From the sequence record PZ445527.1: 64,000 nt of DNA; one strand, 5' to 3'. Positions 94 through 57,557 of the stretch are shown in pieces. Numbering within the stretch: the stretch's first letter is position 1; each line of letters begins with the position of its first letter. Below the pieces are notes generated by a model. That model had not been told where the DNA came from. It ran no database searches and saw nothing but the letters and a program-made list of their open reading frames with translations. Source of the stretch: a phage. The position numbers were made by a program, and so were the translations under genes.

Positions 94-1077
94 GTGACCT
101 CACGTGCGAGCGAAGTTAAGAAACGTTATCAGAAGTTCAAGCAAGAGGCTTCAAATACTGAATGCCCTACTTGCGGTACTCACCTGGATACAACTGCTGC
201 TCAAAAAGCAATGAATATGGCTAGAACAGAATATGATCCTCTGTTCAAAGAAAAGCAATCTCTTGAAGCTAAGCTAGAGCAGCTGAAGAAAGAACAACTT
301 GAGTACGTTGCGTATACTAGAGCAAAGGATGCTTTGGATAAAGCAGTGGTAGCTAGAGACGAGTTCAAAAATTCAATGAGTGATGCTTCTTTTGAAGAAC
401 TCAATGTGCAAATCCTACAGGTGCAAATCCGACAATTAGAACAGGAAATCGCTGATGGCCGCTCTAAGGTTGCAATTGCTAAAGAGCATAATGCAAATGT
501 CGAATTAGCCAATGCAAAATATAAAGCGAAACTAGAACAGATTGAGAAGGCTGAAGCAGAAATGTCTGAGATTACTTCCAAACTTGCTGGAGTATCAGAA
601 GCTGTAGCTGATCTTGATATTCTGATCGCCGCATTAAAAAATCTGGTAGGATATAAACTAGAGCATAGTGTGAAAGTATTTGAAGAACTAATTAATAAAT
701 ACCTTTCCATTATGACTGGCGGTAAATTCGCACTTGGATTTGAACTTGATGAAACGAAGTTACAAGTAGTAATCTTCAATGATGGAAACCGTACCAGTAT
801 GGAGAACTGCTCTACTGGTCAGCAAAGTAGAATTAATCTAGCAACCCTATTAGCTATTCGTATGCTGTTAACATCTATTAGTAAAGTTAATATTAATCTT
901 CTATTCCTTGATGAAGTAATTAGCTTTATTGATACAAAAGGACTTGATACTCTAGTTGAATTATTAAATGAGGAAGAAAGCCTAAATTCTATCATTGTTT
1001 CTCATGGTCATTCGCATCCACTGGCCTATAAGATTACTGTCAAAAAAGATGCAGAAGGATTTTCCTACTTAGAATGA
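94..1077 (+). CDS. SbcC/Rad50-like recombination ATPase, C-terminal portion (D13-like)
   Basis: CPTC zinc-hook-like motif, coiled-coil region, ABC signature-like STGQQS, Walker B/D-loop LLFLDE; stops in all three frames within nt 58-91 so the N-terminal half is not contiguous; GTG start. Confidence 0.55.
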   Translation: MTSRASEVKKRYQKFKQEASNTECPTCGTHLDTTAAQKAMNMARTEYDPLFKEKQSLEAKLEQLKKEQLEYVAYTRAKDALDKAVVARDEFKNSMSDASFEELNVQILQVQIRQLEQEIADGRSKVAIAKEHNANVELANAKYKAKLEQIEKAEAEMSEITSKLAGVSEAVADLDILIAALKNLVGYKLEHSVKVFEELINKYLSIMTGGKFALGFELDETKLQVVIFNDGNRTSMENCSTGQQSRINLATLLAIRMLLTSISKVNINLLFLDEVISFIDTKGLDTLVELLNEEESLNSIIVSHGHSHPLAYKITVKKDAEGFSYLE

Positions 1078-24388: not shown

Positions 24389-24840
24389 TATAAGAACCTT
24401 GCGAATCCTGATTTTGTTTCAGTCTTGACTTGTGTCTTTTCTTGAGGATTCTGTATTTTGTCTTTCTGCTTTTGAACCCACGCTTTTTGCTTATTAGCAG
24501 AAAATAAGGGAGGTTCTTTCGTGTAAACCTTATGTAATAGTTGGTGATGGTGCTGGCACAATGTTACCACGTCCCTAACTAACTCATGCTCATATTTCTT
24601 GTAGAATGCTTCCCTATTTGAAAGGACGATATTCTCATCAGTGAAATCCAGCTGGAGTTCTTTAGCAAATTTTTTTATTAGCTGAGATATAGTATGATAA
24701 TGATGAAGTTCTAGGTCTTCACTACTACCACATATAGCACAGCAACCATCCTTACTATACCTAGATTTTATACCATCCCTCATTATGGAAATGGCATCAC
24801 GTTTGTACTTAGTATTAGTGGCCATACTCCTCCAATCCAA
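24388..24840 (-). CDS. HNH endonuclease (packaging-associated or homing)
   Basis: zinc-finger CAIC ... HHYH ... CQHHH HNH motifs; start overlaps portal gene. Confidence 0.75.
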   Translation of the reverse strand: MDWRSMATNTKYKRDAISIMRDGIKSRYSKDGCCAICGSSEDLELHHYHTISQLIKKFAKELQLDFTDENIVLSNREAFYKKYEHELVRDVVTLCQHHHQLLHKVYTKEPPLFSANKQKAWVQKQKDKIQNPQEKTQVKTETKSGFARFL

Positions 24841-25342
24841 AGCTACTTAGAAAGATTACTATATCCTCTAGGGCAACATTGAGATTCCATCTAATGTGGT
24901 ATAGCATATATGACCCTTATTGTGTTATAGATGTAGTTTTTATTAGTATAGTTATTTAATGGCACATACCCTATTCTGAGTATTTTGGCTTTAATAGCTA
25001 CATCTAGTGATATAGTGTAAAGGTGCAATGTGGTGTTGCTTCCCAAACGTGTGCTCTCTGGCATCTAAATACTGTTTTTGTACGTTGGTTTACATATTCA
25101 CCTACAATTTGGATTCCACGATCAGCTAATCTAATATTTATATCTTTTATTGTTAGCTTTTGTCGACCTATAGAATCTCCTACACCCCATGTAGAGCATT
25201 AATTTTTCTTGTTTACGTTCTATTATGGGAGAAGTTCTCCCGATCAATGAATATAGTATACATAATCGTATCGAATTTGTAAAGGAGATTTTAAAATACA
25301 GGAATGGGGTACCAACTGAGTAGTATCCCATCCTATACTTAT

Positions 25343-26659
25343 TTATTTACCACGGGAAATAGAGTAAATTCCATAGCGCAGCGCATCACAAAGGTGAGAG
25401 TTAGCATCATGACGTGGTTTTTCACGTGATAATTTCTCTTCACCTTCTTGGAAATCCCACTTATAGTTCTGCAATGCATGGATTAATGAGGAACATGAAG
25501 CATCTACAATAATCTTACCCTGTTGGAACAGTGCTTGCAGGCATGCTAGACCATCTAAGACAGATTTTTTAGCTGGAGCCGATGCAATTTCATGCTCATA
25601 AGCTAAGTCCTGGCGGAACTGAGCTGCTGCAGAGTCAACAAAAATACGATCAACTTTATAACGATCTATACAGTGCTGAATATAAGCAGCATGCTGAGCT
25701 GTAGTTTTCTCCGCCTGCTGGTATTCTTCTAACACATAGTAGGTATCTGTATCGTAATGATATTTAATAGTAAGAACTGCTGTAGGATCACGATAACCAA
25801 CGTCAATACCAAGCAACGTTTCGAATGCTTCATCATCTTTAAAGAAGTGACGCATACCTTTGAGGTCTTTAACATGATCGATAGCATTAAAGGTATCAAA
25901 GATCTGGCCTTCGAATACAGAGAAGTCAGCCTCGTATTCCTGGCGGAAGTAGTTTTTACTAACTGTACGACGTGCTTCCTCAATGTCATTCAGATCAGCA
26001 CGAGGATTATCACGATATGTACCATGAATAGATACCCAGTTAGGTAACGTATCATCGAATCCGTAGGCGTAAAACTCTTTAAACCAGTTACCCCCACGAG
26101 GGGTGGAAATAAATAGAGCCTTAGAATTAGGTTTATCTAGAGTAGGACGCAGCTGAACCCTGAAGGCATCACCACCCACGTCGGAAATTGCCGCCTCGTC
26201 AAAGATGATAAAATCATATGAACGCCCAACTGCGGAGTCAGCCTGAGCCGCGGAAGCTAGTTTAAATAGAGAACCATTAGCTAACTCAATCTCTTTATCT
26301 TTAGCGTTTTCACGTTCGGTTTGTAGGCCATACTTCTTAATAAGACCACGAATCTGAGACCATCCGATATTAGCCAGTGAATAGTTAGGGGCAACTACTA
26401 GTACCTTCACATTAGGTTCCAGCAATTTTAGGAACCCAAGTGTATACGCTATAAAAGACTTGCCTACACGGCGTGATACACACGCCGTTACAAAACGATG
26501 TCTAGGGTCTTCTAGGGCATTGATAATTGCTATTTGAGGGCCATTAGGTGTAATACCCTCTTGTGCTAGTATTCCAGAAACAGGTAGACGGAAGAAACGT
26601 TTGTCTATTCCGAAATCAATAACGTCTACTGTATTAACATAGGGTCTTGATACTTCCAT
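25343..26659 (-). CDS. terminase large subunit
   Basis: 438 aa; Walker A-like VSRRVGKSF; C-terminal nuclease-like region. Confidence 0.88.
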   Translation of the reverse strand: MEVSRPYVNTVDVIDFGIDKRFFRLPVSGILAQEGITPNGPQIAIINALEDPRHRFVTACVSRRVGKSFIAYTLGFLKLLEPNVKVLVVAPNYSLANIGWSQIRGLIKKYGLQTERENAKDKEIELANGSLFKLASAAQADSAVGRSYDFIIFDEAAISDVGGDAFRVQLRPTLDKPNSKALFISTPRGGNWFKEFYAYGFDDTLPNWVSIHGTYRDNPRADLNDIEEARRTVSKNYFRQEYEADFSVFEGQIFDTFNAIDHVKDLKGMRHFFKDDEAFETLLGIDVGYRDPTAVLTIKYHYDTDTYYVLEEYQQAEKTTAQHAAYIQHCIDRYKVDRIFVDSAAAQFRQDLAYEHEIASAPAKKSVLDGLACLQALFQQGKIIVDASCSSLIHALQNYKWDFQEGEEKLSREKPRHDANSHLCDALRYGIYSISRGK

Positions 26660-27141
26660 TACTTTTTACCTCCAGTAGCTAGGGAAGTAATTAGGTCCAT
26701 GTAGTTTTGATCCCCGGCTCCAGCAATAATGTTATTCTGGATATTGGTCTGATTAGCAGGAGCTCGAACGGCAGCTTTAGCTTTTTCTAACTCTACCATC
26801 ATCTTCATTTCTTCCATCTTCATCTTATGTGCTTTCCAGAGAATATCCATAATATCCTGGTCAGAACCCATGCCAGTTTCTTCTAACTCTTCTAGCTTGC
26901 GCTTAATAACTTCGTCTAGAACACCAAATAAACGATCTCTATTACGGAATCCGCTTTCCATAAAAATATCGTTTAAGTAGTTCTTAACTTCACTACGATT
27001 CATAATATCTCGGAAAGCTATTTCTGACATTCCAAGACTACGTGCGGCAAAAGGCACATCACTGCCGCACTGTAAATAAGCTTCAATCACATCCATCCCT
27101 TCAGGGGACATAAGATCTGGTACTAATACATCATTTGCCAT
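26659..27141 (-). CDS. putative terminase small subunit / DNA-binding protein
   Basis: 160 aa with N-terminal HTH-like segment; directly upstream of and overlapping terminase large gene. Confidence 0.45.
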
Positions 27142-27151
27142 ATTTCCTCCT

Positions 27152-28939
27152 TTAGGTAAGGCGTTGAATTGTTACTCTTAATCTAGGTAAGAAGACGGCG
27201 GCGGATTCATTTGCATGTATAACTACACCCAACTCAGCGTTACCGTTACCCAAATTTTTAATAGTATAAATAAACCCACTTCTAGTAAATGTTAAGTCAT
27301 CTGGTCGACTAGCCCACTGTTGTGTATAACTATAGGAAGCTGTAGTATGAAATGGCACCAAATGATTAGGAGGTAGAGTTAATATTTGATGAAATATCCC
27401 ATCACCTCCTGTATAACTTTGCTGCCTTCTCCCCTGCACCTGCCATGCAGTGCCACCATATGTTCGTATAGGACCCCCTGCTGTATTAAGGTTTCCAGCA
27501 ACCACCTCAGTAGTTAGGATTACTGTAGAGTTTGCATTTGGTAGCCCAAGACTTACTGTGGATAAGGCTACATACTTATTACCTGTACCTGGGTAAGAAG
27601 GGTTTATGTCATCACCTATGTAAGTACTAGCTACGTTATTCGGTAGTAATCGTAAAGGTACTGAAGAAGGCCCCCAAACGACCCCGTGCTCATTACCTAT
27701 AGTATTATTGTTGGAATTAACATACCATTGTTTACCGGCAGAGAATTTGTAAATACTTATCTGAGACTTAGAACCCCCATAATTTACGGGAGACCATAGA
27801 GAGCCATTATTAGACCCCACAATTTCGCATCTTGCTGTAGTATCTCCAAATACTCCAGTATAAGCAACGTTATTTCCAATATATTCCATATCAGGTCTAG
27901 ATGATAAGTTACCAAAGGCATTCTGATTAATGAATTTGTAACTAGTATTTGGAAGACTAACACCTTTTATAGTAAAGTTAGAGGGGCTTATAAGAATATC
28001 GGATCCAGTAAATGGGTTACTAGCAACGCTCATACCACCATTAGAATATCTAAGGTTCAGCACATACCAGATAACTTTGGTTGGAGTAATATTATAACTA
28101 TCTTGCACATACTGCTTCTTTGCTGCTTGTGATGCTAAGTTAGACGTTGAGCCTCTACATACATAAACCTTATCTGGATAGGTTGAAGAATTATATAGTA
28201 CACTAACATTACTTGGCGTAGTACCCTTTTTACCAGCGTATCCACGTATATTGGAGTTACAAACATAAAACCAAGTATGCCCCCTTTTCCCCGCCCCTAT
28301 AGGAGCCTGCCAGTTAGGGTGCCAGAAGTCAACATTACCACTATTTATCGATACTTTAGATGCTCCGGCTGGAAATCCTGCTAGAGTCCACGCTCTGCCC
28401 ATAGCTTCGGCGGCGTACGCCCCTCCTGGTCTGTATAAGTTAAACCCAGAAGCCTGTGATATAGTACCGCCAGTACCTTGTCTAGCTATTGATTCTTCAT
28501 GCCCTAGACTAGAGTTATAAGTATAAGTACCATGTGCTAAACTATTACCAGATGCAAAAGCTGATGTAAGACCTACTTCAGCACCAGCCCTACCAATAGG
28601 AGGGTCTTCAAAAAATGCAAGAAATTGTCCAACCTGGGATTGAGTACCGTTCAAAAAACCACGATGAGTACCATTAATTTCAACAGCGGTTAGTATAACT
28701 CTACCAGGATCGTTGCTCTTTAGATTAGCTATTACAGAAGGCATTTGGCACACAAAGAACCCATTACCCGCGTTACTTAATGCACTCTCATACGTACTCT
28801 CGACTAGAACAAATGGCATATCAGAATGAAATATAGTATTGGCGTTAGGAGTTTTGTGAGCATTAATATCCCCACCATTCACCTTGTTTAGTGATAATAC
28901 AGTTTTACCATCACTATATTTTCCAGCGAAAAAACCCAT
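27152..28939 (-). CDS. receptor-binding tail protein (pb5-like)
   Basis: 595 aa Gly/Ser/Thr/Asn-rich; divergently paired with lipoprotein gene as in T5 oad-llp. Confidence 0.65.
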
Positions 28940-28964
28940 ATAATCTCCTATTATAAAAATGTAT

Positions 28965-28993
28965 TTGCTTTCATCCCTCTATTTTGCTATAAT
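28965..28993 (+). promoter_or_regulatory. sigma70-like promoter for llp-like gene
   Basis: extended -10 TGcTATAAT (28985-28993), -35-like TTTGCT 17 nt upstream, RBS GGAGAG before ATG 29025. Confidence 0.5.
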
Positions 28994-29024
28994 ATATTCA
29001 TAAATTAGAAATGGAGAGATAAAT

Positions 29025-29291
29025 ATGAAAAAGTTTGTGACTGCACTAGTTGCCGCAGTTATGTTATCTGGTTGTGCACCTGCCCCCAAACCATTTTGTA
29101 CGGGATTTGTAAAATCTTTTGGTGGTGCGGGAGAGGAACATTACGGCCTCAAGGTTCAAAAAGTTCGTATTAAGGGAGATCGCTTTCCAGTAGTACAGCT
29201 CCGTACTAAATTTGGGTGGTGGGATCTCAGTCAGTTTGACCTTAAATATGGTGATTGTAAATTTAAACTAGAGCAATCTAATTACCTGTAA
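29025..29291 (+). CDS. llp: Llp-like lipoprotein (candidate receptor-blocking superinfection exclusion)
   Basis: 88 aa; signal peptide with lipobox LSGC; divergent from receptor-binding protein gene. Confidence 0.65.
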   Translation: MKKFVTALVAAVMLSGCAPAPKPFCTGFVKSFGGAGEEHYGLKVQKVRIKGDRFPVVQLRTKFGWWDLSQFDLKYGDCKFKLEQSNYL

Positions 29292-29467
29292 TTAGTATAA
29301 AGCAAAAAGACATCTAAGTAAACTAAATTTTTTATTTCTTGGATGGTGTACTGGCAGAAACCACTATATGAGAAAAGTTGAAGTCCTTCTAGGAGTTCAC
29401 AGGCACGGTTGGTTGCGCACAAATTGTAGAATATTTTAAATACCACACTTATAGGAGCATAAAAGAT

Positions 29468-29596
29468 ATGTCAAACAAGAGAAAGAGCAGACGTGGAGAA
29501 GTGTATGATAGTTGGATTAATAGCTTTGGATTCGGAACTATCCTATTCTTTATTTTCGTAGGTTTTTGGTTGGCAGCTATGGCGGGGTGGATTTAA
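29468..29596 (+). CDS. small membrane protein (42 aa)
   Basis: RBS AGGAG 7 nt upstream of ATG; one TM helix; stop overlaps next start (TAATG). Confidence 0.45.
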   Translation: MSNKRKSRRGEVYDSWINSFGFGTILFFIFVGFWLAAMAGWI

Positions 29597-29703
29597 TGGA
29601 ATGGGTAATTATTGCACTACTAGGGGTTGTGATTATTGGGCAATGTATTTTAGATAATCACTTAGCTAGAATTGAAACTTTATTAACGGAGAAACGTAAA
29701 TGA
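29596..29703 (+). CDS. small membrane protein (35 aa)
   Basis: translationally coupled (ATGA overlap with next ORF); one TM helix. Confidence 0.4.
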   Translation: MEWVIIALLGVVIIGQCILDNHLARIETLLTEKRK

Positions 29704-29894
29704 TAGAAGTAGTAGCTACACTAATAGTAATACTAGTCTGGGCAACTTTCATTGTTTCTTATAACGCATATGTTCGCCTAAAAACTCTAGAGGCTCAGGT
29801 AAAGCAGCAACAATTTGCTATAGAAAAATTATTAGAACTGCAACGTTGTGATAGTATCCGTATTCTGCAAGTTGAGAGGGAATTAGATGTTTAG
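29700..29894 (+). CDS. small membrane protein (64 aa)
   Basis: N-terminal TM helix then coiled-coil-like segment. Confidence 0.5.
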   Translation: MIEVVATLIVILVWATFIVSYNAYVRLKTLEAQVKQQQFAIEKLLELQRCDSIRILQVERELDV

Positions 29895-30132
29895 TATTAT
29901 AGTTGCTTTTATTATCGGGATAATCGCGGGAGTTTTCGGAATGACTGCGGCTATTAACAAGCATCGCAAATATATTGCGGAAGTATCGCGGGAGATTGCG
30001 GAAAGGGAGCGGAGGTTTGATGAGAAGCGTGCGGAGTTTGAGCGGGAGTGGAATGATGGTTCTCGGGCGTCGCGGAAGAGATTCCGTGAGTTCAGACCAG
30101 AACACAGGTTTGATGACCCTTCTATGCGCTAA
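29887..30132 (+). CDS. small membrane protein (81 aa) with Arg/Glu-rich cytoplasmic tail
   Basis: N-terminal TM helix; overlaps preceding ORF. Confidence 0.5.
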   Translation: MFSIIVAFIIGIIAGVFGMTAAINKHRKYIAEVSREIAERERRFDEKRAEFEREWNDGSRASRKRFREFRPEHRFDDPSMR

Positions 30133-30243
30133 TTGACTTTTGCCAAATTCTTTGGATTACGTACGCGTGGGTGTGCTCACTACCTCCGGCGAAAATACTT
30201 AGTCTCCTAACCGCCACCCCCGTTACTATTATCATGCTAACTG

Positions 30244-30280
30244 TTTCACCCTGCAACCATTTTAATTGCAAGGTGAAACA
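30244..30280. terminator. long hairpin between convergent genes (candidate bidirectional terminator)
   Basis: GTTTCACCCTGCAA-ccattttaa-TTGCAAGGTGAAAC, 14-bp stem with one mismatch. Confidence 0.5.
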
Positions 30281-30296
30281 ATTTCAACTTTAATTA

Positions 30297-31031
30297 TTAT
30301 GCGACTTTTAGTTTCTCAATATATTGTTGCGGGCTGCAACTATATTCTGCGCGTTCTTCCTCGGTCATACTTTCCCAACATAATTGCAAACGGTCGGCTA
30401 GGAACTGATAATCATTATCATCGTCGAGAGATTCATCGATAAAGGTTTCACCTATCAATGTAACGCCGATTGATAGAATATCGTTAACGGCTTGCGCGTC
30501 CAGCGTTTTAAATCCGTATGATGCCGCCGCCGCCAATACTCCTTTATGGTCGTCGATCATCGTGAAATCAGCGTTCGGATATAGCTGCTTAAATAACTCA
30601 AAATAATGGCTTTTATATATAGCGTCTTTACTGTGGTATATTTCGCTAACTTTATCAGCTTCAAAATATTTATGTAGTGTATCGCGGGAAAATACACGGA
30701 TATTACTATCCCCACGCCCTCGCAGTCCTTGCTTGCGTAGGTAATAATAATCTGATTTGCTCATTAGTCGAGCGGTGCAAATAATGTTTAACGTGTTGGC
30801 GTCATTCATGCATTGGCGCATATATGTAACAAGCGGCAATAGTGTGTCTTGCATTATTAAATCATGTTTACACGCTTCATTCTTATACTTATTTAGATCT
30901 AGATTGCCCTCACTATCAAAGCAAGGCGCTACGCGATGGAATGAATTAACGACCGTGCCGTCAAGATCCCAAATCATGACGCGGGAAATATGCGGGAAAT
31001 TACGGGTAATATTCGTTTTAACTTGATTCAT
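30297..31031 (-). CDS. dmp: 5'-deoxyribonucleotidase (HAD family), T5 Dmp-like
   Basis: 244 aa; HAD motif I WDLDGTVV; size matches T5 Dmp. Confidence 0.8.
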   Translation of the reverse strand: MNQVKTNITRNFPHISRVMIWDLDGTVVNSFHRVAPCFDSEGNLDLNKYKNEACKHDLIMQDTLLPLVTYMRQCMNDANTLNIICTARLMSKSDYYYLRKQGLRGRGDSNIRVFSRDTLHKYFEADKVSEIYHSKDAIYKSHYFELFKQLYPNADFTMIDDHKGVLAAAASYGFKTLDAQAVNDILSIGVTLIGETFIDESLDDDNDYQFLADRLQLCWESMTEEERAEYSCSPQQYIEKLKVA

Positions 31032-31105
31032 TTTGTTACGTTCTCCATTAAAGGGATTAAATTAAATTAATTCAGCCCACTGGATGGGCTGGACTATTCC
31101 AGCTA

Positions 31106-31501
31106 TTAAAGGCCAGACGCTAACGCATCAGCGATGACGGTAATATCTTCGCCCGATACGCTGGAACGAATCCCCGCACAAGTATATACTTTTGCGCTCG
31201 CTAGCTGGTCATCAAGGCAAGCGGGGCAAGGCGTGACAACTGCAAAGGCTAACCCTGATTTCACCGCGTCAATAATGGTCGTTTCCTGCTTCATCGTGTC
31301 AATGTAAACGCCTTTCGCCTTGATGCGGCTGGATAGTTTGCCCGTGGTATAGGCGAAAGTAGTGATCTGTAGCGCCTCATTAAACTCGATTAAATCATCG
31401 ACAACGTGACCGGCCTCAACGTGATACCGCTCACCATTAGAATAAACCAGAACGATAGAAGACTGAGCGCGATCGAATGGAATACGGTTAGAAATAGCCA
31501 T
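31106..31501 (-). CDS. hypothetical pre-early protein
   Basis: 131 aa ORF between dmp and A1. Confidence 0.5.
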   Translation of the reverse strand: MAISNRIPFDRAQSSIVLVYSNGERYHVEAGHVVDDLIEFNEALQITTFAYTTGKLSSRIKAKGVYIDTMKQETTIIDAVKSGLAFAVVTPCPACLDDQLASAKVYTCAGIRSSVSGEDITVIADALASGL

Positions 31502-31570
31502 TTTTATAACTCCAATTAATTTAATAAACTTTTATAGGGGCGGTATATTTCAACCGCCAACCTGATTTAT

Positions 31571-33235
31571 TTACGCAAAAAATTTACCGTTCTTAAAGTC
31601 GATCAAAGTGCGCTGACCGTTTGCATAGGTAATTAAATGCGTTTGCGTCCAGCTTGACGCGCCAACGTTGTAACCCATGTCCAGACTACCAGCCACGCCG
31701 GCGGTATATACCCCGCCGTAAATGCTGGCGGTATGAGTGTGCCCCGTGTTTAATTTGCCCAATTTCTTAAATTGCTTCGGATTGCCGCGGCTCCCGTTTA
31801 TGCCATTGTGACCGTGTACGCCGCACTCAATGCCTGCAATCTTGAAAGATTGGTCAGTCGTTAGAAAAATGGCGTTAAATTCACAACCTGCAACCTTGCG
31901 CAACGCATAATCAAGCACGTTGAAAGTATCGTCTTTTTCTGCAATAGCTCCGTAAATTGCAGCATTAAGGCGGTGATATAGTTCCGCGTTCGCTGGGTCG
32001 TCTTTAATGTTAGCATTACGATCATCAAGCCAACGGGATAGCGCCAAATCGTGATTCGATTCAACAATGATTGTTTGAGAAAAATCGCGCTCCATCGATT
32101 CCAGCACGCGACCGGTATCGATAAGATCATCCAGAATTTTATCACGTCCAGCGGCGTACTGTTTTGCTAGGAATACACCGCTGGCGCGATTGTGATGGTT
32201 GCGTGATGTAAAATCATGCACGTCATGCACGAATTGATATTTTGGTTTAAGAATATCAAGCAAGCTATTTTCGCCAGCCCATGACGCTGCGGCGCAATCG
32301 TCATCTAATTTTTCGGCGTGTATGTCACCATATTGCAAGCCTAAAACATGCCCCGACGTTTCATAGCATCCGGCGGGAGTGGCGCAAATATTCAAATCGT
32401 AAAACACGCCGCTTTCATCCATCGTTTCAAGCTGGCGAACAAAAAATTCTCCGTCTTCGTCGAACTCGACAACAAGCGCGCCAAAGTTATGCAGCGCCTC
32501 CGCTTTCTGTCCTGCTTTCTGCTGGATGTAATTTTTTAGCGTTGCCGTTCCGGTTGAATACATACGGCGCACTACTTCACCTTTTAAAGCTGGAACGCTT
32601 TCGGCGGTGATTTTAGCCGCTCCAATTGCCAGACCTTCAAGATTAAGCGCGGTTGCAGTTTCAGCGAATCCAGAAAGCGGATAGTCTGCGGTAGGTAAAA
32701 CGTTAATTTCAGCCATGAAAGCAAAGCGGCGGTTATTTAAAAATACATTCTTATTGCAGATATATTTGTCAAAAGCGGAATCATATTTGATTCCGTTGGC
32801 GCCCTCGCCATTTTGAAAACCGTTTTTGTTATAAATAAACTTGCTAACCAGCAAATCAGCGCCGATAAATTGGGCATATTGCTCCAGTGAGGCCAAAAAG
32901 TTTTTATGCGGGAACGTATTATTCTGAATCGATGTAATAATAAAGCGTTTTCCCTGCTTTACTTCCCATTGCTCGATCGTGCTAGAAATAACTCCAGCGG
33001 CTTCAGGGCGGTCATCGTTTTTTATGGCTTTTGCTACTTTCGCCGCTTTTGGTTTCGCTGGTTTATTTGCTTCCAGCCAGTCACAAATCGCAGTGGAATG
33101 TTTTGCAGTATCGTAAACCGCTTTTGATATATCGTCGCATACTTCCAGCTTAGTAGCGCGCAGACGTTTACCGTAGAAATTGAAATCAGCGGCAAGGTTG
33201 AGGATCTGGGTTTGTTTTTCTGCGGAAATAACCAT
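31571..33235 (-). CDS. A1: A1-like pre-early protein (calcineurin-like metallophosphoesterase / nuclease)
   Basis: 554 aa; metallophosphatase motifs GDIHAE, HDVHDF, ESNHD, GHTH. Confidence 0.8.
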   Translation of the reverse strand: MVISAEKQTQILNLAADFNFYGKRLRATKLEVCDDISKAVYDTAKHSTAICDWLEANKPAKPKAAKVAKAIKNDDRPEAAGVISSTIEQWEVKQGKRFIITSIQNNTFPHKNFLASLEQYAQFIGADLLVSKFIYNKNGFQNGEGANGIKYDSAFDKYICNKNVFLNNRRFAFMAEINVLPTADYPLSGFAETATALNLEGLAIGAAKITAESVPALKGEVVRRMYSTGTATLKNYIQQKAGQKAEALHNFGALVVEFDEDGEFFVRQLETMDESGVFYDLNICATPAGCYETSGHVLGLQYGDIHAEKLDDDCAAASWAGENSLLDILKPKYQFVHDVHDFTSRNHHNRASGVFLAKQYAAGRDKILDDLIDTGRVLESMERDFSQTIIVESNHDLALSRWLDDRNANIKDDPANAELYHRLNAAIYGAIAEKDDTFNVLDYALRKVAGCEFNAIFLTTDQSFKIAGIECGVHGHNGINGSRGNPKQFKKLGKLNTGHTHTASIYGGVYTAGVAGSLDMGYNVGASSWTQTHLITYANGQRTLIDFKNGKFFA

Positions 33236-33332
33236 AATAATAAAACTCCATTAAAGGGATTAAAAACGTTTGTTATTGGCAAATATTGCCAGATATAACG
33301 CCTCAAATAATAGGCGTTATAATTTGCAATAT

Positions 33333-33548
33333 TTAACTAATTGGCATTAGGCTAGAACTAACCCCACAAGCAATGGCGGCTATTAAACAAAGTAAGCCCA
33401 ACCGCTTTGCTAATTTAGCTTTACGCTTAAAATAATACGAATCCAGATCATTTTGGAAGTATGCAAATAATAATGAGGCCGCCATAATAAATAAGCCTAG
33501 AATGAGGGATTCAGTAGGGTAAAAGACCATTTTAATAACTCCAGTCAA
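33333..33548 (-). CDS. small membrane protein
   Basis: 71 aa, two predicted TM helices. Confidence 0.4.
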   Translation of the reverse strand: MTGVIKMVFYPTESLILGLFIMAASLLFAYFQNDLDSYYFKRKAKLAKRLGLLCLIAAIACGVSSSLMPIS

Positions 33549-33586
33549 AGGAAATTATAGCGGGGAATATTCCCCGCTAATTAAAT

Positions 33587-33994
33587 TTATTCGCCTGCGG
33601 CTTGTTTTACTTCATCGGCAACGCCTAACAGCTGCGCCACGGCGTCCAGCGTTTCTAATTTTGCGCTTTCCAGGGATGCCAGATCGTCAACGTCTTTGAT
33701 AATGCCGGAATCAATGGCATGTTTTGCAATAACGCGCACGTAATGCGCTTTGCGGATAGAACTACCGCCGCCAACTTTGCGCGGCTTATCGCTTTTCTGA
33801 TACGCTTTCGCGCTGGTCAATTTTGAGCGAACGGACACGGGAGAAGTCGCGCCAACTGCTTTTGCAATTTCTCTCAGGCCGTCGCTGTTGGCGAACTCCA
33901 AGCCGTTCTCATTGATTAGCTGTTGATACATGGTAACAGCCTGCTGGGTGTTTTCTTCATTCCAAGAGAATTTTGCGGTTTTAACGTTAGTCAT
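33587..33994 (-). CDS. A2: A2-like pre-early DNA-binding protein
   Basis: 135 aa; position upstream of A1 as in T5. Confidence 0.65.
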   Translation of the reverse strand: MTNVKTAKFSWNEENTQQAVTMYQQLINENGLEFANSDGLREIAKAVGATSPVSVRSKLTSAKAYQKSDKPRKVGGGSSIRKAHYVRVIAKHAIDSGIIKDVDDLASLESAKLETLDAVAQLLGVADEVKQAAGE

Positions 33995-34090
33995 GATATA
34001 AACTCCAATTAATTTAATTTAAGGGATAAGATTAACACAATGTTAATCGTTATATACCCCGAACTGCTGGGGTATATAAAGTTAACACTA

Positions 34091-34342
34091 TTACGCTACA
34101 GCTTCCCATTTTTCGTTACGTTGAACAACCTTTACAACGTCGCCGGATTTAACGCGAACGTTATAAATAGTTTTCCCGTTGTTACTCCGTTCCGTTTCAG
34201 CGTAAACCGCATCAATTACATCAAACGGCATAAGCGACGCGCCTTTAATGCGTTCGGCTTTTCCGGTTAGTTCATCCGTTTTAGTAACGAAAGGAATGAA
34301 GACGGATTGACCAATTTTCGGCGCATTAGTAACGTTTTTCAT
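34091..34342 (-). CDS. hypothetical pre-early protein
   Basis: 83 aa ORF upstream of A2. Confidence 0.45.
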   Translation of the reverse strand: MKNVTNAPKIGQSVFIPFVTKTDELTGKAERIKGASLMPFDVIDAVYAETERSNNGKTIYNVRVKSGDVVKVVQRNEKWEAVA

Positions 34343-34569
34343 AGTATAAACTCCAGTTTATTTCGTGGATTGTTCCGCATTACCTGCTAAAAAGTAACAG
34401 GTAATAAGAAAAAATCCGCTCGCCAATATAATCAATTTAAAGAACTCCACTCAGGCCGCTATATCCCGTTAGGGGGCGGGGCACATTTTGGCAAGTACCG
34501 GCCGTCAAATTGTATCAAGTTATCGCTCTTATCGAACTGGGTACATCTTAAAGCCTATCGGCTAGGGTG

Positions 34570-34773
34570 TCAAACTATTTTTTGCAGTTTTTTATGATTT
34601 TCCTTCAGGTCGATCATAATATTTCGCCAGATCATTTCTAGACCTTGCTGGCGGCCTTTCTTGTACTGCTTAAATCGATATTTTACCGATCTTTGCGCTA
34701 TTGTCAATAGCTTTCTAGTATTGCCATCCAGTTTTTTGGCTGGTTTACCAGTGACTAATAAAGTTTGTTTCAT
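34570..34773 (-). CDS. hypothetical basic protein
   Basis: 67 aa Lys/Arg-rich ORF. Confidence 0.3.
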   Translation of the reverse strand: MKQTLLVTGKPAKKLDGNTRKLLTIAQRSVKYRFKQYKKGRQQGLEMIWRNIMIDLKENHKKLQKIV

Positions 34774-35446
34774 ATCTGCGATCCCTTATAATGTAATAAG
34801 TTTGCCGCCGATAGACTTTAAGATATACCCAATTTTTAAAGAGCGCGGCGGTAAACTTCCCGCCGTGTAGTTCGTCATTGCCGCCCTACGAGATAAATAA
34901 TAACAAATGCCAAAAATGGCGCAACCTTATTTTTGTAAAGAAACGTAAAGAAAGCAAATACTCGCACCGCGTCCGGCGATTGCCCAAGTTTAAAGGAAAC
35001 GGGCGCGCGGATACCATAAAATCCAGCAGATAGGCAAGTAATTTTTTCATTTATATTTGCCTTGCCCTACTTGATTTTTCTAGAATCCATCAGGTGACGA
35101 TAAACGGGCTATCCCTTTATGATGGGATACCTGAAAAATTTACCTCGTTGTAGGACGTTTTAGGCCGCTTATTTTCGAGTTAACAAATATTTAACAAAAG
35201 CAAAATTGAAAAATAGTTGTAAAAGGTATTGACTTTTAAAAATCAAGATTAAACGAGTTATTTTATAAAATTAATTAATTGACTTTTATTTGTTGTTGTG
35301 TACTAGAAAGATAGCAGACTAATAATTACTAGAATGATAATCATGCTGGTGGATTGTAACAGCCTGAACCATTAGCAGACTACTAATTCCGGAAAATCTC
35401 ATTAGCCAACTAACTATTTCCTGAGTTATAATATAAACATAAATTA

Positions 35447-35600
35447 ATGAGAAATAATAACTATAAAAATAATCACCATTATAATAATAACTATAAAAAT
35501 AATAACTATAAAAATAATCGCCATTATAATAATAATTATAAAAATAATCGCCATTATAATAATAACTATAAAAATAATCACCATTATAATAATAACTATA
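35447..35600. repeat. tandem direct repeats, about 26-27 bp unit, about 5.5 copies
   Basis: unit ATAATAA(C/T)TATAAAAATAATC(A/G)CCATT repeated head to tail. Confidence 0.85.
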
Positions 35601-35639
35601 AGAAACTATCGGTCTAAGTGAGAATCACTATCATTTAAG

Positions 35640-35721
35640 TTATTCACAAAGTTATCCACAGCACAAAATGATTTGACACGATAGGCGGCGATATAAGGGC
35701 TTATCCACAGACTTATCCACA
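35640..35721 (+). promoter_or_regulatory. cluster of DnaA boxes
   Basis: TTATTCACA (35640), TTATCCACA at 35652, 35701 and 35713 (three perfect consensus boxes), all same orientation. Confidence 0.75.
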
Positions 35722-36041
35722 GGTTTTCCTACTGTATAAATATACAGGGTAAAAAGGTAGTGTTAACGACTGCAATCAATTTTAAGCGGCCTAAATCGCT
35801 TTCTAACGAGCTAAATGATGCGGGGTAATATTAAAGTAAAGCCTCCACCCGTTGCCCTGGGTGAAGGGTATTGATATTTCTACTTTTACCGTTAACAACG
35901 AAAACGAGTAATAATTAACCTAATGTAAAGTTTTGTAAAGGTCGCCATAATCGGTGGCTTTTTTGTTATAATGCCCCTACACCGTTTGAGGACGGTTGAA
36001 AATTTTCCCAAAAAAATTTTGGAGGCTTAAAATGGTTGCGT

Positions 36042-36262
36042 ATTCTTCTTCTGACGCTCTTTTCACTGGAAAAGGCTGGGTATCAAATCGCTGGATCATT
36101 CAAGAAATGGTGCGGGAGTTCGGCATTGCTAAAACTTACACTACCATTCAGGCGCTTTATGATAATGATCAAATCGATCAGCAAACGGCGGGCTTTTTGC
36201 TGGATACCCTGAAGGCGGAACATTGTACTAAAAAACAAGCCGCCAAAATTGCTTTAATGTAA
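36042..36262 (+). CDS. hypothetical protein (73 aa)
   Basis: RBS GGAGG 6 nt upstream of ATG 36042; first gene of + strand cassette between inverted DnaA-box arms. Confidence 0.5.
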
Positions 36263-36304
36263 CTAATAACGGGGCGTTATTTTCGCCCCACTAACTAGGG
36301 GGGA

Positions 36305-36457
36305 ATGAAAATGGTTATTTTTCGATCAATTCTGGCGGGTATCTTGGGCGCTGTTTTATCACTTTTTGCCATAGCTTTCGGCGTTCACGCGGTTATTGTT
36401 GGCGCGGGTATCGCCGTTTTTTCTTATTTGCTGGGCTGCATGAGTAAAGGGGAATAA
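36305..36457 (+). CDS. small membrane protein (50 aa)
   Basis: two hydrophobic helices; G-rich RBS. Confidence 0.4.
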   Translation: MKMVIFRSILAGILGAVLSLFAIAFGVHAVIVGAGIAVFSYLLGCMSKGE

Positions 36458-36459
36458 AA

Positions 36460-36672
36460 ATGATCCGCAACGTTTCTCTTGCTCGTTCGAAAGGCTTTAA
36501 GCTGGTGGACGTTAACACGTTCGAGCGGGAAGATTGTAAAATTGAATATATAGCACGGAATAAAAACGCCTTCCGTGTTACTGAAAAGAAATTCGATAAG
36601 CGCGGCAACGTGATCGCTGAAACGGTTAGACACTTTGCCACCTTTTACGCGGCCTTTCGTGGGGTACTATGA
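36460..36672 (+). CDS. hypothetical protein (70 aa)
   Basis: ORF tightly packed after previous gene. Confidence 0.5.
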   Translation: MIRNVSLARSKGFKLVDVNTFEREDCKIEYIARNKNAFRVTEKKFDKRGNVIAETVRHFATFYAAFRGVL

Positions 36673-36794
36673 AAAGCGTTGTTATTGTTATCCTTGCAAT
36701 GGTTGGCGGTTTTACCGCCACCTTATTTAAGAATGATCCCCTTTCATTGGGGATTTTTATGCTTTTATCTGGTTACCTGATTGGGAGGTTATAA
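36669..36794 (+). CDS. small membrane protein (41 aa)
   Basis: ATGA start/stop overlap with previous ORF; TM helix. Confidence 0.4.
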   Translation: MKSVVIVILAMVGGFTATLFKNDPLSLGIFMLLSGYLIGRL

Positions 36795-36795
36795 A

Positions 36796-37140
36796 ATGGT
36801 AATTTATGAAGGCAATCGCTTTGTTACTAATTGCCGCCCGGCATTGTTAGCAAACTACTTAAACCAGCTTTCTCCTGAATATAAGGGCGTTGTTAATATT
36901 TACGAGGGAAAAGCGCATTATAAGATTAATGCGGTCGTTGCCCGTGAACTAGCGTTTCAATTTTTGACCTTTGCATCTTGTGATATTCAGGTCATGGGGG
37001 AGGCGTTAATCGCAGAAAATGAAAATGATTTTATTAATATTTTTCGCAAAGTATGCACCGAGCGCCTGATAATGAAAGGCGCATATATTCAATCCACTGC
37101 GGATAGTATTGAAACAGCGTTTCGAAAGGTGGCACAATGA
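36796..37140 (+). CDS. hypothetical protein (114 aa)
   Basis: RBS GGGAGG then ATG 36796. Confidence 0.5.
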   Translation: MVIYEGNRFVTNCRPALLANYLNQLSPEYKGVVNIYEGKAHYKINAVVARELAFQFLTFASCDIQVMGEALIAENENDFINIFRKVCTERLIMKGAYIQSTADSIETAFRKVAQ

Positions 37141-37155
37141 AATTATATATTTTCG

Positions 37156-37434
37156 TTGGTAATAGTAAGGCAGCTAATGATTCCGCTGGGGGCGATAACG
37201 TTCGCCACTATTGGCAAAAATATATTTACTAGGGTTATTATGAGCAATAAAATTATTATAACTAAAACTACCACAATGGTAGACGTTTTTTACGTGCCCG
37301 ATACGCCGGAAAACCGGCAAGCGGTCGAGCGGGGTGATTATGGTAGCGTTATTTATGATGCCGATGGCTATTATCGGCATTTGGTCGATTCCTATGGGGA
37401 AGAGGAGAAGATCACGCATCGACTACCAGACTAA
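37156..37434 (+). CDS. hypothetical protein
   Basis: 92 aa ORF, start uncertain. Confidence 0.35.
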   Translation: MVIVRQLMIPLGAITFATIGKNIFTRVIMSNKIIITKTTTMVDVFYVPDTPENRQAVERGDYGSVIYDADGYYRHLVDSYGEEEKITHRLPD

Positions 37435-37469
37435 TAATAACGGGGCGCAACTATCAGGGAGTGCCCCCA

Positions 37470-37507
37470 ATTCTCAAATGAGAATCATTCTCAAATGAGA
37501 ATGATTC
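37470..37507. repeat. overlapping near-perfect palindromes TCAAATGAGAAT(C/G)ATTCTCATTTGA
   Basis: dyad symmetry read directly; flanked by GGGGCGC...GTGCCCC inverted repeat. Confidence 0.8.
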
Positions 37508-37747
37508 TCATTTGACCGCGCCCGCGATGGTTAGCCTGCTAATGATTAGGGTGTTACGTGTCGCCTTGTGTGATCGTTAGCTCGCTAACTAATTTTCAAG
37601 CCTCCTCCAATTTTGCCCTTGTTTTAGTATCCCCGCCAAAATTAAACGCGTTAGAATGCGATTCAGGACGTTTTAGCGGTATATTAGAATTATTCACTGC
37701 ATAGGAATACTGTATAAATATACAGTAGAATAACCTGGGGATAAGTC

Positions 37748-37816
37748 TGTGGATAACGCTTCAAAATGGCTAGGATTCTGTCAAGTCAAATCGTGCTGTT
37801 GATAAGTCTGTGGATA
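37748..37816 (-). promoter_or_regulatory. DnaA boxes in inverted orientation
   Basis: TGTGGATAA at 37748-37756 and 37808-37816 (reverse complement of TTATCCACA), preceded by palindrome TACTGTATAAATATACAGTA (37708-37727). Confidence 0.75.
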
Positions 37817-37839
37817 ACTTAAATAACAGTGTTTCTCAC

Positions 37840-38047
37840 TTCCGTTTTTAAATGCGAATCATTATCATTCGTATTCCACTATCTAACCGATAATCATTCC
37901 ACTTTTTAAATGAGAATCGTTTCACTTCTTGAATAGTTCTCATTCCCTTTCTTAAATGCGAATAATTATCATTCGCATTTCACTTTTTAAATGAGATTGA
38001 TTCTCATTATCATTCGCATTCAGGCGAGCAGGGCAATTGCCCTGCGC
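37840..38047. repeat. array of AATG(C/A)GAAT...ATTCGCATT palindromic motifs ending in perfect 18-bp palindrome GCAGGGCAATTGCCCTGC
   Basis: repeated TTTTTAAATG(A/C)GAAT units and dyad-symmetric AATGCGAATAATTATCATTCGCATT. Confidence 0.75.
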
Positions 38048-38050
38048 TTT

Positions 38051-38276
38051 TGTGCAAATCCGACATCTGCTCCAAGGGTTACGTGCTGGCGTGTATGTGC
38101 AAATCCGACAATTTTTGGTAGTGTGCAAATCCGACCCGAAAAATTTTTATAGTGTGCAAATCCGACGACGAATCTGTCTCCCAAAAACTCCAGCAATCAC
38201 GAACTGCGTTCGAATCCTGTGGGATATGTGCAAATCCGACATGGTTTTTCTAGGATTAAGATGTGCGAATCCGACA
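38051..38276 (+). repeat. six direct 14-mer iterons GTGCAAATCCGACA (one variant GTGCGAATCCGACA)
   Basis: copies at 38051, 38097, 38123, 38154, 38228, 38263; irregular 25-75 bp spacing; same orientation. Confidence 0.85.
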
Positions 38277-38605
38277 AGATTTTTGTGACTTCGATTGAAG
38301 GGTGTGTGATTGTGTGGGTTTGAGGAGAAGATGAGAGAGCGAGAGAAATTTTGGGACTAGAAGGATGTGGGCGCAGGATTGGTGCGGAGCACCTGATTTG
38401 CGGGGATTTTGGGGAAGATGTGGGATAATTTGGGAAGATTTGAGATAGGTGCAGAAAAAGTGAAATTTTATTAGCAAAATGGGGCAAAATAGCTTGACAA
38501 GTGAAAATTTCTGTGGCTCTAAAAACTCAGGCAATCATGGGCCTTCGGCCCGAAATAATGCTGCTATTTTCAGGAGAGTAGGAGTTCCTAAAAACTTAGG
38601 CGTTT

Positions 38606-38654
38606 GTGCAAATCCTACCATAAATTTCTAGAATATCAATGTGCAAATCCGACA
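38606..38654 (+). repeat. two further copies of the 14-mer iteron
   Basis: GTGCAAATCCTAC (38606) and GTGCAAATCCGACA (38641). Confidence 0.8.
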
Positions 38655-38694
38655 GTAATTTCTGGAAATGTGTTTTCGAAAAATGTCTCCTAGA

Positions 38695-38770
38695 AATAAC
38701 CGCCCTCCCTATAACCGCCCTATATTAACCGCCTATTGCTAGAGTTTCTAGGAACAATGAAAACCGCCTG
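38695..38770 (+). repeat. four direct AACCGCC heptamer repeats
   Basis: ATAACCGCCCTCC, ATAACCGCCCTAT, TTAACCGCCTATT, AAAACCGCCTGAG. Confidence 0.6.
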
Positions 38771-39189
38771 AGTTGACTAAAGTTTTCATAAAAACTTAGG
38801 AGTCTAGAAGAAAGTGTTGTGCCATCCTAGCAGATGAGCGGCAACAGGTGTATCATCTTGAATGTAAATTATATGGTCAAAAGTTTTACTTTTATTTTAA
38901 ATATAAGATCCCCCAGGGTTCTCATATAGAGCTTTGCCCCCGCCAGAAGGTCTCGTGATGTTTCTAGCAATTTATATTAAATTACTTATTAACTTGTCCT
39001 GTCGCTCCGTATCCTCCGCTACAAGTTAGTAATTTTAAATTACTGAACCACCACACCTTCTGTGTGGCAACTCTAAATGGTTAATTCTATTAACTCATAG
39101 AGTTATGATAACATACATTTAGCTATCTGTCAACGAAAGTTTGTATTTGAGTCTCGGTACAGGTATTGTGCACCGAGACATGCAGAGTA

Positions 39190-40153: not shown

Positions 40154-40765
40154 TTAATCCTTTTTACTTTCGTTAATAACAGCCCCTAATGCTTCCATAA
40201 TTGCATCTTCTAAACTTCCATGTTTATCAGGATTGCTTAAGTGAATAGTATAAACAGAATTCCTAGAAACTCCAGAGTCCGCTGGTGCTACGCTTTTCAT
40301 GTCAGATTCAAAAGCTTCTTGAGTATGTTTCAATTGTACAGAAGGTCCATAATCTTCACCAACTCGGTAGGACTGATTAGACGACAGTGTACCACCACAT
40401 GGAACATTGTGCAAATCCGACGTTATTTTAGGGCTGTTCCACATTGTAATTGGCCCTGACTGCCACGGATCTCGAATAGTCACAGGAGTACTAGGACGGT
40501 TAACCTCAGTCTTCACAAGTTTATAGCCAGCATCGATTAGTGTATTAATTAGATTATCAGCTGGGATGCGAGCTTTGCCAAAGATCTTACGAGCGTTGTT
40601 GAGCCTACCTTCAAAATCTTTACATGCTTTAATATTAGTGTGCGCAAAGGTTAGCTTCATAGATTTGAACTGTACAGTGGCAGTTAAATCTTTAAAAGCA
40701 TAATCCCACGTATTCAGTTCATGATCTGGTACTACTTGAATAGATTGCTGTGCATATAAAGTCAT
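40154..40765 (-). CDS. hypothetical early protein
   Basis: 203 aa ORF; contains an in-frame copy of the GTGCAAATCCGAC iteron at 40429-40441. Confidence 0.55.
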   Translation of the reverse strand: MTLYAQQSIQVVPDHELNTWDYAFKDLTATVQFKSMKLTFAHTNIKACKDFEGRLNNARKIFGKARIPADNLINTLIDAGYKLVKTEVNRPSTPVTIRDPWQSGPITMWNSPKITSDLHNVPCGGTLSSNQSYRVGEDYGPSVQLKHTQEAFESDMKSVAPADSGVSRNSVYTIHLSNPDKHGSLEDAIMEALGAVINESKKD

Positions 40766-57482: not shown

Positions 57483-57557
57483 TGGCAGGGGATATTGGAT
57501 TTGAACCAATGATCTCGACTTCAAAGGCCGTTGTGCTAACCGTTACACTACTCTCCA
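57483..57557 (-). tRNA. tRNA-Gln(UUG)-like
   Basis: perfect T-arm ATTGG-TTCAAAT-CCAAT, D-arm GTGT-AACGGTTA-GCAC, anticodon loop CTTTGAA, CCA encoded; acceptor stem pairs poorly (4 of 7). Confidence 0.4.

Follow-up and report, generated by a model that had tools for sequence, protein, structure and literature searches.

Direct repeat D of a T5-like phage is an oriented, conserved array of 14-bp sites that brackets the right boundary of the terminal repeat and may serve in its recognition

What are the directly repeated 14-mers that crowd a short non-coding stretch of the phage record PZ445527.1, and what would recognise them? In the window (the whole 64,000-nucleotide stretch of DNA that was analysed), an initial annotation had described eight same-strand copies of such a 14-mer, a recurrence judged to be far beyond chance. 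Both statements are borne out. When the window was scanned with up to two mismatches, 11 matches to GTGCAAATCCGACA were found, all on the + strand (five exact, five with one mismatch and one with two), against a chance expectation of 0.31 in the 64 kb, and this number was reached in none of 100 shuffles. Eight of the 11 copies lie within 603 bp (38052-38654, Table 1), the first of them starting at 38052 and not at 38051 as first reported, which shows that the motif does not occur at similar density throughout the genome. The copies of the array are irregularly spaced (successively 45, 26, 31, 74, 35, 343 and 35; overall range 26-378 bp). Each intergenic copy is directly preceded on its 5' side by a T and usually followed within a few bases on its 3' side by a short T-tract, and the copies of the window fit a consensus (T)GTGCAAATCCGACA of 14-15 bp. 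Allowing three mismatches added a single weak match on the + strand (52690) and, on the minus strand, only GTTCRAATCC-type matches at 57493, 60189 and 61020 and one match at 12897. It should be noted that the core of the motif, GTGCAAATCC, is one base off the tRNA T-arm sequence GTTCRAATCC and that these three minus-strand matches are located where the T5 map puts the tRNA cluster; the likeness is probably fortuitous, as judged from the flanks of the motif, which form no T-stem.

By its sequence, the window comes from a T5-like phage. Its region 37700-39000 shares 93.6% identity with T5 9403-10746 and is matched by 448 phage records. The array is made up of members of the 'direct repeat D' (DRD) family of T5 (Davison 2015, 2020) and lies in the non-coding Repeat Region 3, where the long terminal repeat of the T5 type has its right end. 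The sequence of this region that appeared in 1987 is reportedly that of Heusterspreute. Davison (2020) credits the first description of DRD to that sequence and to the 2005 T5 genome paper (Wang 2005, record AY587007), and treats DRD as part of Repeat Region 3, the injection-stop region, giving no role to the repeats. In record AY587007 the copies are annotated as 'direct repeat D copy 1-10', with copies 11 and 12 inside exo2/D13, and in record AY543070 the same stretch appears as 'injection stop signal (iss)' and 'major DNA single-chain interruption'. The motif, its strand and the order of the copies are the same in T5 and in the window, the spacing is near-identical, and in both phages the array lies between the last pre-early ORF and the first early gene, with additional copies in ORF019 and a pair in exo2/D13. 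By contrast, the array comprises nine copies in T5 and eight in the window, where T5 copy 9 (GTGCAAATCCGATG) has no counterpart at up to three mismatches, and the terminal repeat measures 10.1 kb in T5 and about 8.3 kb here. The repeat, which the initial annotation had not recognised as known, is an already annotated and published T5 element found here in a close relative.

Two questions meet at this element. How T5 halts DNA entry once 8% of the genome has been injected, and how it resumes, has been asked since the 1960s; papers published between 2023 and 2026 call the cis signal for this stop and restart untested, a 2023 paper on BF23 states that experimental studies of the repeats are lacking, and a 2026 PNAS paper describes the mechanism of second-step transfer as poorly understood. 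The other question is how T5-like phages create terminal repeats of 8-10 kb. Compact, sharply delimited and conserved over great distances, the DRD array is a cis element located at both events and clearly lends itself to mutagenesis and binding assays. The present comparison adds the deep conservation of the motif, its bracketing of the repeat boundary and the nucleotide-level constraint on the copy within ORF019, which sharpen the old question of its role.

Table 1. Features of the window that are discussed in the text (positions are those of the window)
Feature	Position	Strand	Basis or remark
DRD copy 1, exact	38052..38065	+	T5 AY587007 'direct repeat D copy 1'
DRD copy 2, exact	38097..38110	+	motif scan
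DRD copy 3, 1 mismatch	38123..38136	+	motif scan
DRD copy 4, 1 mismatch	38154..38167	+	motif scan
57-nt double module DRD5-TTTCTAGGAT-DRD6 (copies at 38228 and 38263)	38227..38283	+	motif scan, repeat family D5
57-nt double module, second copy (DRD7 at 38606, DRD8 at 38641)	38605..38661	+	motif scan, repeat comparison
Isolated DRD copy GTGCAAATCCGACG, 13/14, antisense in ORF019 homologue (40154-40765, -)	40409..40422	+	T5 copy 10
Adjacent DRD pair, 15-nt offset, sense strand of D13/SbcC-like gene, encodes VQILQVQIRQ	406..434	+	T5 copies 11 and 12
Terminal repeat, single copy in the window	30174-38519		homology to T5 termini
Right boundary, TTGACAagtgaaaatttctgtggctc / TAAAAACTCAGG, cut between 38519 and 38520	38494..38531	+	inferred by homology
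Left boundary between 30173 and 30174, then AAAATACTTAG and TAACCGCC; DRD absent	30174..30215	+	homology, module comparison
Hairpin palJ (GCAGGGCAATTGCCCTGC), overlaps nick-1 consensus CCCTGCGC	38028..38047	-	homology to T5
palD palindrome and two DnaA-box repeats (TGTGGATAA at 37748 and 37809)	37710..37818	+	upstream part of the same non-coding region
A2, pre-early DNA-binding protein, candidate DRD binder	33587..33994	-	phrog_1725 'DNA binding protein'
Putative terminase small subunit (TerS), candidate DRD binder	26677..27138	-	phrog_3802 'terminase small subunit'

Regarding the distribution of the motif, an exact-match scan of IMG/VR gave multi-copy matches only in T5-like contigs of 104-123 kb. 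To avoid ascertainment bias, 28 loci were sampled via the neighbouring ORF019 protein and not via the motif. All 26 of these T5-like loci with a full flank carried 6-9 array copies (at up to two mismatches) on the same strand and none on the opposite strand, with near constant spacing, and none was array-free. The motif is also kept in Yersinia phage phiR2-01 (A2 73% identical), in the Sugarlandvirus GZ8 of Klebsiella (A2 64%), where four copies make up a 27-nt tandem TATATGTGCATATCCGATGATGATTTT, in a 122-kb T5-like contig (L063/L064), and in the Vibrio phages Achelous and Thalassa, of which A2 is 39-41%, TerS 47% and D13 about 43% identical. Proteus phage Stubb has a single degenerate copy (TGTGCGTAATCGAC) and no array. 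In an alignment of 27 arrays, conservation was 0.87 in the motif columns and 0.82 in the spacers; the motif has no special footprint among close relatives, the whole 1.2-kb region being 82-87% conserved, and this footprint test is non-discriminating because the whole non-coding region is conserved.

The copies inside genes give another view of the constraint. The initial annotation had placed a ninth copy, as an exact match, at 40428-40441 inside a 203-aa ORF; the copy does lie in that ORF, which is the ORF019 homologue, but at another position and with one mismatch (Table 1). Among 29 distinct ORF019 sequences, the third-position conservation of the nine motif codons was 0.99 compared to a gene mean of 0.82 (rank 1 of 195), and several residues encoded by these codons vary while their third positions stay conserved. 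The sole common variant of this copy, GTGCATATCCGAC, is an A/T wobble that is also seen in the Sugarlandvirus array. These results indicate selection on the DNA sequence of the ORF019 copy. The adjacent pair in the D13/SbcC-like gene (406-419 and 421-434) had been overlooked. Its second copy is exact in 27 of 28 relatives, fetched via the protein regardless of the motif, and the synonymous-site test ranked the pair 30 of 323 in a gene too conserved to give power. In the Vibrio D13 homologues (about 43% identical; L189, L190, L192 and L193), CAAA(A/T)CCGACA occurs twice, 63 nt (21 codons) apart, at about 639-715, near the position of the T5 pair, and is read in another frame (K-x-K-T/S-D) than the T5 pair (VQIRQ). 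These sequences are suggestive of a counterpart of the DRD pair, or could be an internal peptide repeat. The D13/SbcC-like gene of the window also carries, at 58-60, an in-frame TAA in place of the GAA found in T5 and in each of the 28 relatives sampled. This codon, which comes shortly after the nick-4-like motif GCCCGCGCCC, represents either a sequencing error or a premature stop that only this genome has.

The orientation of the copies on a single strand, their conservation down to proteins of about 40% identity and the constraint on the coding copy are most reasonably read as those of protein-binding sites, one of the likenesses that the initial annotation had proposed. We infer from these sequence features that the copies would be binding sites for a conserved sequence-specific DNA-binding protein of T5-like phages. 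The initial statement that the 14-mer matches no DnaA, sigma70 or IHF consensus also stands. As a DnaA box the motif was rejected, having no match to TTATCCACA and lying apart from the DnaA boxes, which are found separately at 37748 and 37809. It was likewise rejected as a promoter or a known RNA: promoter-like matches were not enriched (9 compared to 5.6 +/- 2.6 expected) and no -35/-10 pairs track the DRD copies, promoter and terminator scans gave nothing tied to them, and an Rfam scan of the region returned no matches. Compared by eye with the consensuses of host factors, the motif matched none of DnaA, IHF, Fis, CRP, LexA, matS, the XerC arm of dif and sigma-54; in the comparison with CRP, the half-site spacing is 5 in DRD and not 6.

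A host protein conserved from Vibrio to Enterobacteriaceae, acting with the DnaA boxes in an injection block or in membrane anchoring, could have been the reader of such sites. The 14-bp motif was preserved while the phage proteins diverged to about 40% identity, and the DnaA boxes and an SOS-box-like palindrome of the region are equally conserved. Against this, the direct comparison gave no match to any of the host consensuses named above, and the array has disappeared from a Proteus phage, the host of which would possess these conserved proteins as well. We regard recognition by a host protein as unlikely.

The position of the array with respect to the terminal repeat is the most informative of our observations. 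The single copy of the repeat lies in the window between the late region (27152-30173, with the receptor-binding protein and a lipoprotein) and the early region (38520 onward), which indicates that the source record is collapsed or circularly permuted and is not a virion map. Six DRD copies are located inside the repeat and two outside, in unique DNA. The 57-nt module DRD-TTTCTAGRAT-DRD is duplicated, with one copy on each side of the boundary: the DRD5-DRD6 module is the last inside the repeat, with 236 nt between its end and the boundary (243 nt when counted from the end of DRD6 itself), and the DRD7 module starts 86 nt past the boundary. A homologous right boundary was found in GZ8, L063/L064 and Thalassa, and bracketing was seen wherever a record holds both repeats, in at least five lineages. 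The numbers of copies inside and outside the repeat are six and three in T5, L061/L059 and L063/L064, four and three in L086/L088, four and four in GZ8, six and one (within 1.5 kb) in phiR2-01, and six and two in Thalassa, the two ends of which have an exact 7,395-bp repeat in common. In each of these phages the cut comes after a TTGAC(A)...G-rich stretch. The repeat boundaries in database records are depositors' calls; in the L008/L010 record the boundary falls 36 nt past copy 6, still within the gap, which is probably an imprecise deposit. In Stubb (L158, 11405-11432), the PhageTerm-predicted repeat end, 11415, falls exactly on CCCTGCGC/C and is adjoined by the lone DRD-like copy. Some 750 bp to the right of it there is a TTGACA...G-rich site that resembles the T5 boundary, and the end deposited for Stubb may be an artefact of the nick.

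In every lineage examined the right boundary falls inside the array, with repeat lengths of 7.4-10.2 kb and proteins whose identity falls to about 40%. This is the most diagnostic fact at hand. Such an architecture is that of terminase recognition sites. Short direct-repeat clusters that flank or adjoin the terminase cut are the usual form of pac and cosB sites, as exemplified by P1 pac, lambda cosB, SPP1 pacL/pacR and the T7 concatemer-junction repeats, and repeated short sites flank the repeat boundary in all seven phages or contigs listed above. We tentatively favour, as a possibility still short of probable, that the array is a pac/cosB-like terminase recognition array marking the right boundary of the repeat. 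The terminase small subunit would bind the oriented DRD sites that flank a conserved cut site (TTGACA...G-rich / AAAAAC, between 38519 and 38520 in the window) and, once bound, would direct the nuclease to the place where its cut gives rise to the right genome end. Packaging would then start at this right end, next to DRD1-6, and run leftwards, and the left end, which is the end of first-step transfer, would be packed last and leave first. Such an order agrees with the last-in, first-out rule for packaged DNA. At the left boundary, where the cut would be a termination cut, the cut-site modules would suffice without DRD.

The sequences around the two boundaries are compatible with such a division. 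Ahead of each boundary there is TTGAC with a G-rich run, and AAAAWACTYAG and TAACCGCC are found just right of both, with DRD at the right boundary only. TAACCGCC is present in one copy at +35 of the left boundary and in three tandem copies at +178 of the right one, and AAAAACTCYRGCAATCA occurs at 38183 and again at 38521, one base past the right boundary (sites compared: 30174-30215 with 38520-38733, and also 38183-38199, 38590-38600 and 38790-38800). At the left boundary of Thalassa, TTACCGCC is found at about +37. From these comparisons, AAAAWACTYAG and TAACCGCC are possible terminase cut-site modules. It is also observed that 38494-38552 holds a consensus TTGACA just inside the boundary with a weak -10 about 17-18 nt downstream; beyond the boundary, after 20 nt of unique DNA, comes a GGGCC-TTCG-GCCC tetraloop hairpin. 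Both elements are almost invariant in 27 relatives, and GZ8 has another hairpin at the same place; they could yield a small transcript or be a structural part of the cut site.

The likeness to known packaging sites has its limits. Like the arrays of P1 pac, lambda cosB and SPP1 pacL/pacR, DRD forms clusters of short repeats, which would lie beside a fixed terminase cut and are split by the repeat boundary, with six copies on the left and two or three on the right of it, in at least five lineages. By contrast, the DRD array is more spread out (12-250 bp from the cut, over some 600 bp in all) and the binding of TerS is putative, and neither the Dam-methylated hexamers of P1 nor the IHF-bent R sites of lambda are seen in the DRD array. 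In the P1, lambda and SPP1 systems only the initiation site carries the repeats. T7, which packages from concatemers, has short direct-repeat arrays adjoining the boundaries of its direct terminal repeat; that repeat measures 160 bp and has 7-bp units at either side, whereas T5 has repeats of 8-10 kb with the 14-bp DRD at the right boundary only. The binder of the array and the direction of packaging are what we infer from this architecture, and one paper reports that the left end of T5 is packed first; were this so, the array would act at the termination of packaging and not at its initiation. In the literature searched, nothing specific was found on T5 packaging signals, nor any binding or in-cis packaging experiment on DRD. 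The ORF019 and D13 sites are without obvious packaging role.

The array is also located at the stop of first-step transfer, the shear point of T5 being at about 9618 and DRD1 at 9672, and position alone therefore cannot separate packaging from injection. In the main alternative, which is conceivable if somewhat unlikely, the DRD copies would instead be sites for A2, alone or with A1, in second-step DNA transfer. A2 made from the injected DNA could bind the oriented sites as they enter the cytoplasm and release the block or ratchet the DNA, and transfer would resume; alternatively, A2 could target the A1 nuclease to cut to the right of the stop signal, as in Davison's model. The classical 7.9% shear point lies about 50 bp before the start of the array, which falls in the region annotated as the injection stop, and A2 has been purified as a DNA-binding dimer that is required for second-step transfer. 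Near the array, only dmp, A1 and A2 are common to the T5 type, Stubb and Thalassa, and they are the only pre-early proteins shared by the T5 type and Thalassa, which keeps DRD. However, a role in transfer gives no reason for the repeat boundary to lie within the array in every lineage, most copies would still be outside the cytoplasm at the pause, and a non-palindromic site is unusual for a simple dimer. Moreover, the A2 of Stubb is more T5-like (46% identical) than that of Thalassa (39%), yet the array is lost in Stubb.

Stubb bears on both candidate binders. It retains A2, with the SVRSKL-type helix conserved, and TerS (51% identical) while having one degenerate DRD copy and no array, so TerS and DRD do not co-vary. 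This result weighs mildly against each of the two as a strictly DRD-dependent protein, and covariation cannot choose between them because both are retained without the array. A2 and the PHROG-assigned TerS have the same phyletic range, and Pfam and PDB sequence searches with them gave nothing useful. The TerS gene is directly upstream of TerL (25352-26659). The order in 24400-27138, on the minus strand, is TerS, TerL, HNH-motif protein (24400-24825) and portal. This order matches the HNH-assisted packaging-module layout of other phages, and the Stubb homologue of the HNH protein is annotated as 'nicking endonuclease'.

The favoured role as a terminase recognition array and a role in injection could be two sides of one element. 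The DRD array would then act as one polar protein-DNA checkpoint, whichever way the DNA is being transported: during packaging it would set the right-end cut of the terminase for the 8-10 kb repeat, and in the left repeat it would be the pause site of DNA entry, restarted by A1/A2. We consider this combined role improbable. If true, it would explain why, all the way from coliphages to Vibrio phages, no more than about 500 bp separate the injection-stop point from the repeat boundary.

The initial annotation had also likened the 14-mers to iterons. As origin iterons bound by a phage initiator, with the ORF019 and D13 sites as secondary origins, the copies would share with those of P1 oriR, pSC101 and R6K their direct repetition in the same orientation near DnaA boxes, here 230-310 bp upstream; the oriC-like look of these boxes was noted by Davison, and the additional sites elsewhere in the genome are conserved. 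In contrast to those iterons, for which phased units of 17-22 bp would be expected, the DRD units are shorter (14 bp) and spaced by 26-378 bp with no helical phasing. There is no adjacent Rep-like initiator gene: the flanking ORFs gave no significant Pfam match (one sub-threshold DUF2201_N match in ORF019), and ORF018 and ORF019 are of 'unknown function' in PHROG. The origins of T5 have been mapped near the genome centre in work cited by Davison (2020). The word iteron in its replication sense does not fit these features, and a role of the array as a replication origin is very unlikely.

The remaining likeness proposed at first was to nicking sites. Judged from the homologous site of T5, the nick in the minus strand falls between 38047 and 38048, and DRD1 starts 4 nt past the nick-1 motif CCCTGCGC, an adjacency (CCTGCGCY-N2-4-(G)GTGC...) that is kept in GZ8, Thalassa and even Stubb. 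The nicks of T5 follow R^GCGC, and according to the literature additional sequence must contribute to the choice of the site. DRD could be this additional sequence; the T5 major nick sites (R^GCGCRGG) lie on a single strand, as the DRD copies are all in one orientation, DRD1 abuts nick 1, and 363 bp separate the D13 pair from predicted nick 4. However, no DRD-like sequence was found within 1 kb of T5 nicks 2 and 3 (CCCTGCGCTCTCC), even at four mismatches, which leaves two of the four unique major nicks without a nearby DRD; nicks 2-4 were placed in the record by consensus matching only. DRD is without GCGC, the nick motif CCCTGCGC being a separate element, and eight or nine copies are unneeded for one nick. 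As a general nick determinant DRD was thus rejected on account of nicks 2 and 3, the likeness to nicking sites comes down to DRD1 abutting nick 1, and we give hardly any credence to DRD as a guide of T5 nicking among R^GCGC sites.

Upstream in the same non-coding region, it is the part with palD and the DnaA boxes, and not DRD, that is Davison's candidate for the injection-stop element. The palindrome CTGTATAAATATACAG, which represents the T5 'palD' and its inverted partner, is found at 37710-37725 and at 35732-35747, two copies compared to 0.22 expected, and has the consensus form of a LexA/SOS box, CTGT-N8-ACAG; LexA is not mentioned in Davison (2020). Each copy of CTGTATAAATATACAG adjoins DnaA boxes, and similar palindromes are found in Thalassa, Achelous and Stubb.
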